NCBI GenBank assembly: GCA_964632315.1
Contig: CAZWEM010000003.1
Coordinates: forward strand, 73,823 to 137,822
Reading direction: 5' to 3'
Origin: an uncultured archaeon
Lineage (GTDB): Archaea > Asgardarchaeota > Lokiarchaeia > Sigyniarchaeales > SOKP01
Length of the DNA: 64,000 nucleotides
Shown here piece after piece: positions 1 through 27,504 of the stretch (position 1 is its first letter; each line of letters opens with the position of its first letter). The notes under the pieces were generated by a model. That model had not been told where the DNA came from. It searched no databases and saw only the letters and a program-made list of their open reading frames with translations. The translations under genes were made by a program, and so were the position numbers.

Positions 1-3000
1 ATTCCATTGGTAGAAAAAGAAATTTATAAAGTAGGTCCCGCAATTGCACTACAAACAATTAAAAAAATTGCCGTACCTGCTAACCGTTTGATGGTAAATG
101 CTTCATTTTTGGCTCAATTACTATATCAAGCGTATCAAGAGGGAATGACTCATTCAATGGACATATTTGGTTCTCACGTTGATGGAGGTGATGCACTGCT
201 TAACTTATTTTTTGATTATAACGATCTCTTTTTAGGGACCACTCTTTTAGGTGGCCTTGGTACGACTTCTTTCAGCGAGCAATTAGAAGCAAATGGACTT
301 CCGCCAATTTTGGGGGTTTCAGAATGGTGGTCTGATATCCAAGGGTCTGACATTGATCTTGAAATTGGTGCATGCGATTATGTTCTATTGGGGCAAATCC
401 CCCAACCAAATCCAAATGATATTTTGTCTTGGGGTAATCCATCACAAAAAGACATCGATCTTTGGCGAAATAATCCACCGGGGTTTATCCAACATAGTGA
501 AAAAGGATTTGGAATATTGGATTTTCTTACAAATTTTTCAATTGCCAATGAGACTGGAATGCATTTTGAGTTTCTTTCACAATATTATGAAGGTAGAACC
601 TTGAATTGGAATGATTTCGAGATACTTGCACGATATTTTAATGAGTACTGGGTTCCTGTTGTTATGCCAATATTACTGGGTGAACTCCAAGATCCCAGCT
701 CAGAATTTAGTACACGAGCACCTGAATATGTGGGAATGAGTTTGGATGATATTTCTTATTACGAATTTTTGAAGGAATGGATAAATTACTCAACATATCC
801 TCTTGGAGTTGATTTTCATTCTTTCATTGAAGAGATACCCGTAGGAACATATGGGTTAGAAGTGAATAGCACTATCTCAACTAATTCAGCCTATGCCTTA
901 TGGAATGAAACTAATAAATGGTCGTTTCTCAATACAACAGGTATCTTAAAATGGTTTGATGCAAATTCAAGTGATGAAGATCAATTAGATCTTGCTTTGC
1001 ATTTTGGTCTAAATTCTCAGCAGGTCTCAGATATATGTAATTGGTTATGGGATAAGAATGGATTTTCCAATCAACTATTTCCAATGCTTGTTTCAGCCCC
1101 AATTCCTTATGGATATGATATGTCTATAGAAAACTTATCACAAAAAGCTTTCTATGAATTATGGGCAAACGGAACTGCTTTAGGTTTGACTCTATATCCT
1201 GAAGGTATCGATTTTGGAGAATTTTTTCCAGAGGAATTTGATCTCAATACAACTGGATTTGAATTAGGAGTCCCAATACCAACAGCAATATCCAGTGATT
1301 TAGCTGAAGCTCTCTGGAACGAATCAAATCCATTTTCATTGACTAATATCACAGGAATTCAATTATGGGCCGATGCCAATTCATCTTTAATTGTCAAAGA
1401 TGAGATATATAATGCATTTTTAAGTTTTGGAATAAGTTTTGACCAAATTGATCAAATCCTCTACTGGTTATGGGATGGCGAAACTTCCTTTAGTCAATTT
1501 TTACTTCCTATTCTTATAAACAGTTCTTTAGGATATGGAATGAATATTAAGGAATTAGCGAGATACGTTCTATATGAACAATGGGCAAATGGTACGACAT
1601 TAGGATTATCTTTATTTCCAGATGGCCTGGATTTTGGTGAATTCATTGAGGAATTGCCGTTAGGAACGGTTGGGTTTGAGGTTGGAATACCCATATCTAC
1701 TGAGATGCCGATTAAATTAGTTAAAGCACTTTGGAACGAGTGTAACAATAAATCATTGCTGAACATCACGGGGATCGAATTATGGTTCAACGCTAATGCA
1801 TCTATAGAAGATCAAGCTACCCTGATCTCGGAGTATGGACCTCTTGGATTGACGCAGGAAGAATTAGACAAGATACTACAGTGGTTATGGTACCCTGGGG
1901 GATTTGTAGATAGCTTATTTCCGAAATTAGTCGAATCTCCAGCTCCCTATGGCTACGGAAGACCCATCCCACTACTTGCGGAACAAGTATTTTACGAAAT
2001 GTGGGCAAATGGGACGGCATTAGGATTATCTTTATTTCCAAATGGCTTGGACTTTGGCGAATTCGTTGATGAATTGCCGTTAGGAACTGTTGGGTTTGAA
2101 GTAGGGATTCAAACACCTACAGGAATGTCACTGAATTTAGTAGAAGCGCTCTGGAACGCATCAAGCCAATTTTCATTAACAAATGTTTCAGGTATCCAGG
2201 TATGGGCTTCAGCAAATTCTTCTTCAACTGAAAAGACAGTTTTATACAATCAATTTTCGAGTTTACAAATGACTAATGCCCAAATAACCGGAATTCTTGA
2301 TTGGTTATGGGGTGGTCCAACCTCTTTTAGCCAAGCTCTCTTACCAACCCTTATAAATAGTTCTTTAGGTTATGGAATGGATATCAAGGAATTAGCGAGG
2401 TACGTTCTATACGAACAATGGGCAAATGGTACAATATTGGATATGGTCATGTTCCCAGATGGTATTGATTTTCACGAATTTATCCCAGGTTTACTCCCGG
2501 GAACAACTGGATTTGAGGTTGGAATACCTATATCTACTGAGATGCCAATTAAGCTAGTTGAAGCACTTTGGAATGAGAGTGAAGATAAATCATTGCTGAA
2601 CATAATGGGTATAGAACTATGGTTTGGGGCTAATACTTCATTAGAAGATCAAGCTACCTTGATCTCGGAGTACGAGTCTCTTGGATTAACGCAAAAAGAA
2701 TTAGAAATGATATTACAATGGTTATGGTACCCTGGGGGATTTGTAGATAGCTTGTTTCCGAAATTAGTCGAAATTCCCGCACCATATGGTTACGGAAAGC
2801 CTATCCCATTACTTGCTGAAAAAGTATTTTATGAAATGTGGGCGAATGGGACGGCGTTAGGCCTATCTTTATTTCCAGATGGCTTGGATTTCGGTGAATT
2901 CATCGAGGAATTACCGTTAGGAACGGTTGGGTTTGAAGTTGGGATCCCCATACCCACTGGAATGTCATTTGATTTAATCAAAGCCCTATGGGATAAGAAC

Positions 3001-26779: not shown

Positions 26780-27057
26780 TTATTTATACTTAATCGCCAG
26801 TAGGAGATCGTTTTTGGTAATTTATATAAGAAATCCTTGAAATAAGAAATTCTTTTTACGATTAGCATGCATGGTAAAAGCTCGTGCTTGTTCGGTTAAT
26901 CCAGATGCTGTTTTTTCAAGATGGTCAATTAAAAGATCCACTGCATTTCTGGCTACGATGCTTGCACCTTGCTGCTTCATTAATCTCCTTATTGGCGACC
27001 AGGCAAAACTCCACTCAGAGTCGATTTGACCCTTGATCTATGTTTCTTTTTAGCCAT
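26780..27057 (-). CDS. Archaeal histone (HMf-like fold, 72 aa after removing two putative introns); exons 27057-27038, 27008-26854, 26823-26780
   Basis: GGAGGA RBS before ATG 27057. Spliced product: MAKKKHSFAWSPIRRLMKQQGASIVARNAVDLLIDHLEKTASGLTEQARAFTMHANRKKITKNDLLLAIKYK. Has the alpha1 PIRRLMK and HA.RK.I...D histone motifs. Absent from the ORF track. Confidence 0.88.
26824..26853 (-). other. Putative BHB-type intron 2 (30 nt) in the histone gene
   Basis: AGAAUUUCUUAUUUCAAGGAUUUCUUAUAU. Central helix GUAA/UUAU; bulges AA^A and AU^A; intron stem GAAUUUCUU/AAGGAUUUC; exon stem UAAU/AUUA. Removal deletes the in-frame TAA and restores RKKIT. Confidence 0.8.
27009..27037 (-). other. Putative BHB-type intron 1 (29 nt) in the histone gene
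   Basis: AUCAAGGGUCAAAUCGACUCUGAGUGGAG. Intron stem UCA-A-GGGUC/GACUC-UGA; bulges AG^A and AG^U; central helix ACAU/GUGG (3 pairs plus A.G). Removal fixes the frameshift. Confidence 0.72.
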
Positions 27058-27504
27058 GGTCTATTCCTCCACAATTATAAATTTATAATTCGAGTATTTT
27101 TACTTTTTTTTGGTTTATTAGTAAAGTTTCTTAGATAATATAATATCCGAACGATTATTTAAATGTTTTGGCAATATCAGAAGAACTTGAGGGATTAAAT
27201 GAATAAAAAATCACGACAAAAAGTTAATGTTTTGATTAAAGGATAATCATCCGTGATCATGGAAAGGAAGATCACATGAAGAATTCGAATCCAATTTTTT
27301 AGAATCAAAATAATTCGGATGGTCAAGTTGAGAAAAAGAGGCTTAATATAGGTTTTATTATGGTTTAAAGGGGAATTAAAAAAATTTTTATCAATGCAAC
27401 TCATCATCATTCAATGTCGTGAGATCCATCCCACGATCATAAGGTCTTAGTCATGAGGTAATTAAGTGGGAAAAAATAATCTTATTCTAGTGGTATGATA
27501 TGGG

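Follow-up and report, generated by a model that had tools for sequence, protein, structure and literature searches.

The closest known counterpart of the element reported here is the intron of cbf5, the pseudouridine synthase gene of Crenarchaeota, which takes the shape of a bulge-helix-bulge (BHB) in the pre-mRNA and was shown experimentally to be spliced (Watanabe 2002; Yokobori 2009, PMC2738675). In the literature that we searched, cbf5 is the only gene for which a spliced intron within an archaeal coding sequence is documented (PMC2738675, PMC7714728), and nothing was found on mRNA introns of Asgard archaea or on introns in archaeal histone genes. Here we describe a histone gene on the minus strand (ATG at position 27057) of a 64,000-nucleotide stretch of an uncultured lokiarchaeal genome (GenBank assembly GCA_964632315.1, contig CAZWEM010000003.1), called the window below. 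The gene carries two short inserts, and the second of these, which is 30 nucleotides (nt) long, is very likely a genuine archaeal (tRNA-type) intron in a protein-coding mRNA. It resembles the cbf5 intron in being short, in lying within the coding sequence, in folding into a BHB and in being a predicted substrate of the tRNA-splicing endonuclease; its presence is likewise lineage-specific, with apparent losses, and the gene is likewise mis-annotated by gene callers. Unlike cbf5, the histone gene comes from the Asgard archaea (Promethearchaeota) and not from Crenarchaeota, its splicing is inferred from sequence comparison, two introns interrupt a gene of only 219 nt whose terminal exons are 20 and 44 nt long, the introns are polymorphic among species of one genus and turn over very fast in sequence, and they are part of a phenomenon that affects several genes of one genome.

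Archaeal tRNA genes can contain non-canonical and multiple introns, and the tRNA genes of Asgard archaea are heavily interrupted (Marck and Grosjean 2003; bioRxiv 10.64898/2026.10.13.758758); mRNA introns are not mentioned in the latter preprint. The histone inserts share with the tRNA introns the helix-bulge-helix-bulge-helix (hBHBh') motif, the size range, the predicted enzymes and the repeated gain and loss. They differ in that the host is an mRNA, thus the exonic halves of the motif are codons, and synonymous sites come under constraint. A BHB intron was also found in the 5' untranslated region of the HVO_1309 mRNA of Haloferax volcanii (PMC7714728). It is an endonuclease substrate in an mRNA, as predicted for the histone introns, but it lies in the leader and leaves the reading frame uninterrupted. 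In eukaryotes, IRE1 and RtcB-type ligation remove a small intron (26 nt in XBP1) from the XBP1/HAC1 mRNA and thereby change the C-terminal reading frame. This small, non-spliceosomal mRNA intron is the best analogue of a regulatory role; it is, however, cut by another nuclease, is framed by twin stem-loops instead of a BHB, and its removal is stress-regulated.

Read straight, the histone gene is broken twice. MAKKKH enters a different frame after 20 nt, and the unspliced histone body (FAWSPIRRLMK to HANRKK) ends as NFLFQGFLI and a stop, i.e. translation through the second insert terminates after RKKNFLFQGFLI, as the original prediction had it. Behind this TAA stop, ITKNDLLLAIKYK and its own stop codon continue in the same frame as the histone body. 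The layout of the gene is as follows.

27065..27070, minus strand: ribosome binding site GGAGGA, 5' of the ATG, read from the sequence; kept as GGAGGAAT in every ortholog.
27038..27057, minus strand: exon 1, 20 nt, with the ATG; encodes MAKKKH plus two bases of the Ser7 codon, same as the start of the uninterrupted orthologs.
27009..27037, minus strand: intron 1, 29 nt, relaxed BHB; present in 14 distinct alleles, missing from most orthologs.
26854..27008, minus strand: exon 2, 155 nt; FAWSPIRRLMK to HANRK plus the first base of the Lys59 codon, helices alpha1 and alpha2.
26824..26853, minus strand: intron 2, 30 nt, phase 1, splitting the Lys59 codon in loop L2; defined by the BHB scan, covariation and product identity.
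26818..26864, minus strand: the whole BHB motif of intron 2, defined by the fold, the blind scan and covariation.
26822..26824, minus strand: TAA across the 3' cut, made of the last intron base and two exon bases.
26780..26823, minus strand: exon 3, 44 nt; two bases of the Lys59 codon, then ITKNDLLLAIKYK and the stop, helix alpha3.

Exon 2 matches PF00808 (archaeal histone / CBF-NFY family). Removal of both inserts yields an intact histone of 72 amino acids (aa) encoded by 219 nt, which could be aligned to the histone HPhA (1ku5) over residues 11-70. The PF00808 match and the HPhA alignment show that the complete alpha1-L1-alpha2-L2-alpha3 fold is obtained after insert removal. In this alignment exon 3 corresponds to RKTVKVEDIKLAIK of HPhA and the intron 2 junction falls in loop L2 (RK/K, the slash marking the junction, opposite RKT of HPhA), so a product retaining intron 2 would indeed lose alpha3, as had been claimed. 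The genome (4.45 Mb, 33% GC, 119 contigs) has four other, uninterrupted histone genes, and the interrupted one is thus one of five paralogs.

A near-canonical BHB at intron 2 was confirmed. All elements of the fold that the original prediction had placed between 26866 and 26815 were found: an outer exon helix UAAU/AUUA (26864-26861 with 26821-26818) next to a C.A mismatch (26860/26822), a central helix GUAA/UUAU (26859-26856 with 26829-26826), the 3-nt bulges AAA (26855-26853) and AUA (26825-26823), and an inner stem of nine positions (26852-26844 with 26838-26830; eight pairs and one U.U) closed by the loop AUUUC (26843-26839). On each strand the bulge stands 3' of the 4-bp helix, which is the canonical arrangement. 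In pre-tRNA the bulge is also 3' of the helix, and the 3' bulge abuts the anticodon stem. Cuts behind the second base of both bulges take out 26853-26824, i.e. 30 nt. In silico, this excision joins RK to KITKNDLLLAIKYK and restores the frame; the TAA at 26824-26822, built as predicted from one intron base and two exon bases, is destroyed and the histone is recovered.

The gene was compared with about 150 orthologous loci, taken from 23 congeneric genomes and, for some 130 loci, from genome and metagenome collections. An ortholog of exon 2 is present in the 23 congeneric genomes with 88-100% identity, and most orthologs are uninterrupted, reading MAKKKHSFAWSP ... HANRKKITKNDLLL(S/A)IKYK. Among 123 full-length loci 106 have no insert, nine have both, seven have an insert at site 1 only and one at site 2 only. 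The site 1 insert is 28-29 nt long (14 distinct alleles), that at site 2 is 30, 31, 34 or 35 nt long in 13 distinct alleles and 33 nt long in two more contigs. The same inserts recur in many independent assemblies, and they sit exactly where their removal recreates the uninterrupted ortholog sequence, which we count in favor of genuine introns. Taken together, the comparison indicates that the insert has to be cut from the mRNA. Public protein sets contain many fragments of this histone, 52-67 aa long, with internal-Met starts or with unrelated tails after HANRK; such fragments can be attributed to gene callers applied to intron-bearing alleles.

To score the motif blindly, every possible cut pair of each allele (introns of 15-60 nt, about 1800 pairs) was rated for canonical BHB geometry. 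For intron 2 of the window the frame-restoring pair was tied for rank 1 of 1771 pairs. At site 2 this pair came out on top in 9 of the 13 alleles and ranked 2-9 in the other four, and in a 33-nt allele it ranked 1 of 3841; the central helix has all four pairs in 9 of the 13 alleles and three of four in the others. The background frequency of a BHB score this good is about 1.3e-3 per (position, length) pair in this genome. Given the rarity of the score, its frame-restoring position and its recurrence in independent alleles with covariation, the BHB of intron 2 is more than a chance match. The BHB of intron 1 has a central helix ACAU/GUGG with one A.G mismatch and the bulges AGA and AGU, both cut behind AG. 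At site 1 the frame-restoring pair ranked 1-14 of about 1700 in 13 of 14 alleles, the remaining one (L140) ranking 762, its aligner-defined target being off. In other lineages this histone has further insert positions. A third one was encountered in L092, where 30 nt between GAS and IVAR form a canonical BHB ranking 1 of 2691. A 31-nt insert between WSP and IRR in L154 gave a weak canonical BHB (rank 120) and may represent a relaxed motif.

The paired positions covary. In the ten site 2 alleles of equal length 85% of the alignment cells pair, compared with 28-47% after the 3' partner has been shifted by 1-3 columns, and 10 of the 18 pairs, including all nine of the inner stem, change on both sides. 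The observed covariation score was reached by none of 500 shuffles. Pairing amounts to 92.5% of cells in the central helix and 78% in the outer one. Site 1 behaves in the same way, with 88% of cells pairing versus 21-53% after sliding, and with four compensatory pairs. The central pair 10-41 of site 2 occurs as U-A, A-U and C-G; as column 10 corresponds to the third position in the codon for Arg57, a synonymous exon site covaries with the intron. This Arg57 codon is CGN in 9 of 9 intron-2 alleles versus 35 of 95 intronless ones, and the pairing potential of the outer helix is 4.1 of 5 in intron-2 alleles versus 2.4 of 5 in intronless alleles.

Once the inserts are taken out, an intact histone of 72 aa is encoded by each of the 14 distinct intron-bearing alleles. 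Among them mean dN is 0.017 and mean dS 1.31 (from 0.3 to more than 1), a ratio of 0.013. In exon 3 of the intron-2 alleles 47 synonymous codon differences were counted versus 8 non-synonymous ones, and second codon positions are invariant. Purifying selection is thus strong on all three exons, including exon 3, which lies behind the stop. The intronless loci L038 and L102 encode exactly the protein that is predicted as the spliced product. Ten contigs encode this identical protein, with DNA differing from the exons of the window at 36-47 of the 219 bases, all differences being synonymous. A cDNA-like contig, carrying the very exon DNA of this gene minus the introns, was not found among these ten contigs; they are diverged intronless orthologs with 79-84% DNA identity. 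In marine-sediment metatranscriptomes a share of 0.35 of the sampled sequence words was detected, which does not count as evidence that the gene is expressed or spliced.

Genes for RtcB and for two EndA paralogs are present in the genome. One EndA is most similar to A. pernix 3p1z_B and has retained the catalytic His; in the other, aligned to M. jannaschii EndA, the catalytic His is replaced by Ser. The pair is (alpha-beta)2-like, a type of EndA that has been reported from Asgard genomes (bioRxiv 10.64898/2026.10.13.758758). We infer the cleavage and ligation, with EndA and RtcB as their agents, and propose the following scheme. The pre-mRNA would fold locally into the helix-bulge-helix-bulge-helix motif, half of which is exonic, with codons for Asn-Arg-Lys on the upstream side and for Lys-Ile-Thr on the downstream side. 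EndA, as an (alpha-beta)2-like enzyme of two subunits, would cut behind base 2 of each 3-nt bulge, and RtcB would ligate the exons. In this way 26853-26824 would be released, the straddling TAA destroyed and RK joined to KITKNDLLLAIKYK; with the 29-nt intron 1 also removed, the intact 72-aa histone could be made.

Several observations weigh against a spliced intron. In the allele of the window the BHB-constrained fold costs +3.3 kcal/mol and the pair probability of the central helix is about 0.01; in the same allele a C.A mismatch sits in the outer helix, and the inner stem contains a U.U. Genome-wide, a scan for a BHB combined with an open frame returned about 1540 matches each for the real and for a decoy geometry; a modest excess over decoys appeared only with a long inner stem (10 perfect inner stems versus 2-3); the scan is noisy and provides no census of introns. 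Finally, with four intact paralogs the genome could survive even if this copy were dead. As to the fold, it is common for bulged motifs to differ from the minimum free energy (MFE) structure, and such a difference does not point to a switch. The MFE fold is a bulge-less hairpin (-6.0 kcal/mol, z = -1.9), in which the inner stem is lengthened by only two A-U pairs. This competing hairpin had been proposed as a conformational switch; the hairpin is real, whereas the switch finds no backing, the extended hairpin being formed in only 4 of 13 alleles.

The same evidence bears on the idea that the intron is real but is retained for a function, either because partial splicing yields an alpha3-less histone or because the hairpin gates EndA, in both cases tuning chromatin composition. 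We consider this improbable. The weak in silico population of the BHB next to the MFE hairpin would suit it, dosage control of one of five paralogs is conceivable, and each of the ten 30-nt alleles, diverged as their introns are, has a TAA or TAG across the 3' cut. The last point follows from the bulge being invariantly AUA, cut behind AU, with A or G as the next exon base. Against the idea, most congeners have no intron, and retention would have different outcomes in different alleles, namely a stop with 30 nt, a frameshift with 31, 34 and 35 nt, and an in-frame insertion of 11 aa with 33 nt. The truncated isoform would also require removal of intron 1, and without alpha3 a histone fold would more probably be unstable than have a regulatory role. 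On these grounds the suggestion that a truncated isoform tunes chromatin was not upheld, and a regulatory role of retention or of a hairpin switch is not supported.

It is far less probable still that the gene is a decaying pseudogene, in which both inserts would be DNA-level scars that are never removed and histone would be supplied by the four intact paralogs. Two disruptions in one small gene would fit such decay, but a dN/dS ratio around 0.01 across 14 intron-bearing alleles, the constraint on exon 3 behind the stop and a product that matches the one of intact orthologs exactly, although 36-47 synonymous differences separate the genes, do not. Nor would scars be expected to covary so that a BHB is kept whose cuts restore the frame, or to recur in many independent assemblies. 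The selection data and the product identity mean that a pseudogene cannot account for the gene. Least credible of all is that the insert is skipped during translation, as in T4 gene 60 or the mitochondrial byp elements, or is removed from the RNA by a nuclease other than EndA. Its short size, the hairpin in the gap and the stop near the edge recall bypass elements, and EndA is a putative nuclease for this RNA. There are, however, no matching take-off and landing codons: resumption at AUU ACC would need UAA as the landing codon, and a Lys codon is absent from the required register. The lengths of 29-35 nt, the covarying central helix and the 3-nt bulges on opposite strands fit the EndA geometry specifically, and the signal is lost in slid geometries. 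The same motif, moreover, occurs in four unrelated sequence contexts. A self-splicing group I or group II intron was rejected because the insert is 30 nt long, compared with a ribozyme core of hundreds of nucleotides, and the window has no Rfam match, and a spliceosomal intron was rejected because GU-AG boundaries are ruled out from the sequence. An archaeal BHB intron thus remains the preferred reading of the insert.

The history of this intron appears to include repeated loss. In an exon tree, based on 219 nt only, 12 intron-bearing alleles group in a single clade (support 99/99), within which three intronless members are nested, suggesting losses; in the same short-sequence tree L121, with an insert at site 2 only, and L140, with inserts at both sites, were placed elsewhere, among intronless neighbours. 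Intron sequences diverge much faster than the exons. In L186:301-477 (JGI contig Ga0366833_1004027) intron 1 is kept and only 6 nt are found at site 2, where CGT AAA AAT ATA AAG ATT reads RKNIKITK, i.e. a 2-aa insertion in loop L2. The 6-nt scar matches a deletion of the hairpin from an L187-type intron, and L186 thus looks like an imprecise genomic loss, the remnant of which is now translated. It appears that the intron was lost precisely in some lineages and imprecisely in one contig. Most likely the intron is a tolerated, evolutionarily mobile or decaying element, and not a regulator.

Some members of the comparison set deviate from the patterns described above. In the orthologous proteins P0006, P0047, P0049 and P0053 an extra Pro/Arg-rich stretch (e.g. 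RPRPPPERVSH) directly precedes SFAWSP, at the intron 1 position; gene callers may have read through an in-frame insert here. The intronless L084 has an in-frame stop in exon 2 (between GLT and QARAF) and L100 has a different C-terminal tail behind KND; these could be damaged or variant copies. The histone copies of L098, L160 and L167 have an abrupt start or end near IVARNAV, and unrelated sequence takes the place of the remainder; the missing exon was not found within 1-1.5 kb. Truncation of the copies, a split gene or chimeric assembly may explain them.

Inserts of the same kind interrupt other genes of the genome, and we count this recurrence, like the third site in L092, in favor of a genuine intron. 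Two of them came out of the genome-wide BHB scan, and the uS8 gene is interrupted by a TAA. A gene for a leucyl-tRNA synthetase (LeuRS)-like protein (C41 26283..26254, minus strand; L173) has a 30-nt BHB insert with a stop. Its excision gives PMGYDS/FGLPAENAA, and over the junction the match to Pfam tRNA-synt_1g passes from position 46 to position 48. An acetyl-CoA-synthetase (ACS)-like gene (C25 about 819..788, minus strand; L175) contains a 32-nt BHB insert, excision of which gives WYCTAD/IGWITGHSY, with AMP-binding positions 211 and then 215 over the junction. Both intron sequences of the histone gene were compared by BLAST with the genome and only short chance matches were obtained, so neither is a copy from a repeat family. 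No match was obtained when the window was scanned against Rfam and for tRNA genes.

An Asgard chromatin protein gene with two such introns, and at least two further genes (LeuRS-like and ACS-like) of the same genome with introns of the same kind, would have consequences beyond this locus. If the interpretation is correct, Asgard protein-coding genes are systematically mis-annotated as truncated or split open reading frames, mRNA splicing by an endonuclease plus a ligase is an ordinary process in the lineage nearest to eukaryotes, and intron gain, loss and exonisation become open to population-scale study in a prokaryote. One can speculate further that BHB mini-introns constitute a dynamic genome-wide layer in Asgard archaea of the Lokiarchaeia type, repeatedly gained where an exonic hairpin provides one half of the motif beforehand, turning over rapidly and lost precisely or imprecisely, and that the invariant stop of the 30-nt histone alleles is a selected fail-safe by which EndA/RtcB activity gates the amount of one histone paralog. 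We regard this wider proposal as rather unlikely; if it is true, the closest archaeal relatives of eukaryotes would possess a form of mRNA splicing that is endonuclease-based and has regulatory potential.

A few further observations were made on other parts of the genome. The second exon of the ACS-like gene has additional in-frame extra stretches, VTSNFNWKSLPSGVKV and YFSMIRPEMGI, which might be unspliced introns without stops. The match to ribosomal protein uS8 (C35 14222-14622, minus strand; L168/L169) is split in two, and its N-terminal part contains the TAA. One of the top matches of the genome-wide scan, on C1, was rejected as a false positive, since it consists of two neighbouring thiolase-like genes. 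A search of the genome for 16S gave no match. The matches on C36, C74, C80, C106 and C109 are markedly GC-rich for a genome of 33% GC, and these contigs probably belong to the 8.6% contamination of the bin. Although the genome is rated 99.5% complete, ARAGORN detected only 30 tRNA genes; introns were called in 19 of these, some of the calls being spurious. Probably many of its tRNA genes are too interrupted for detection.
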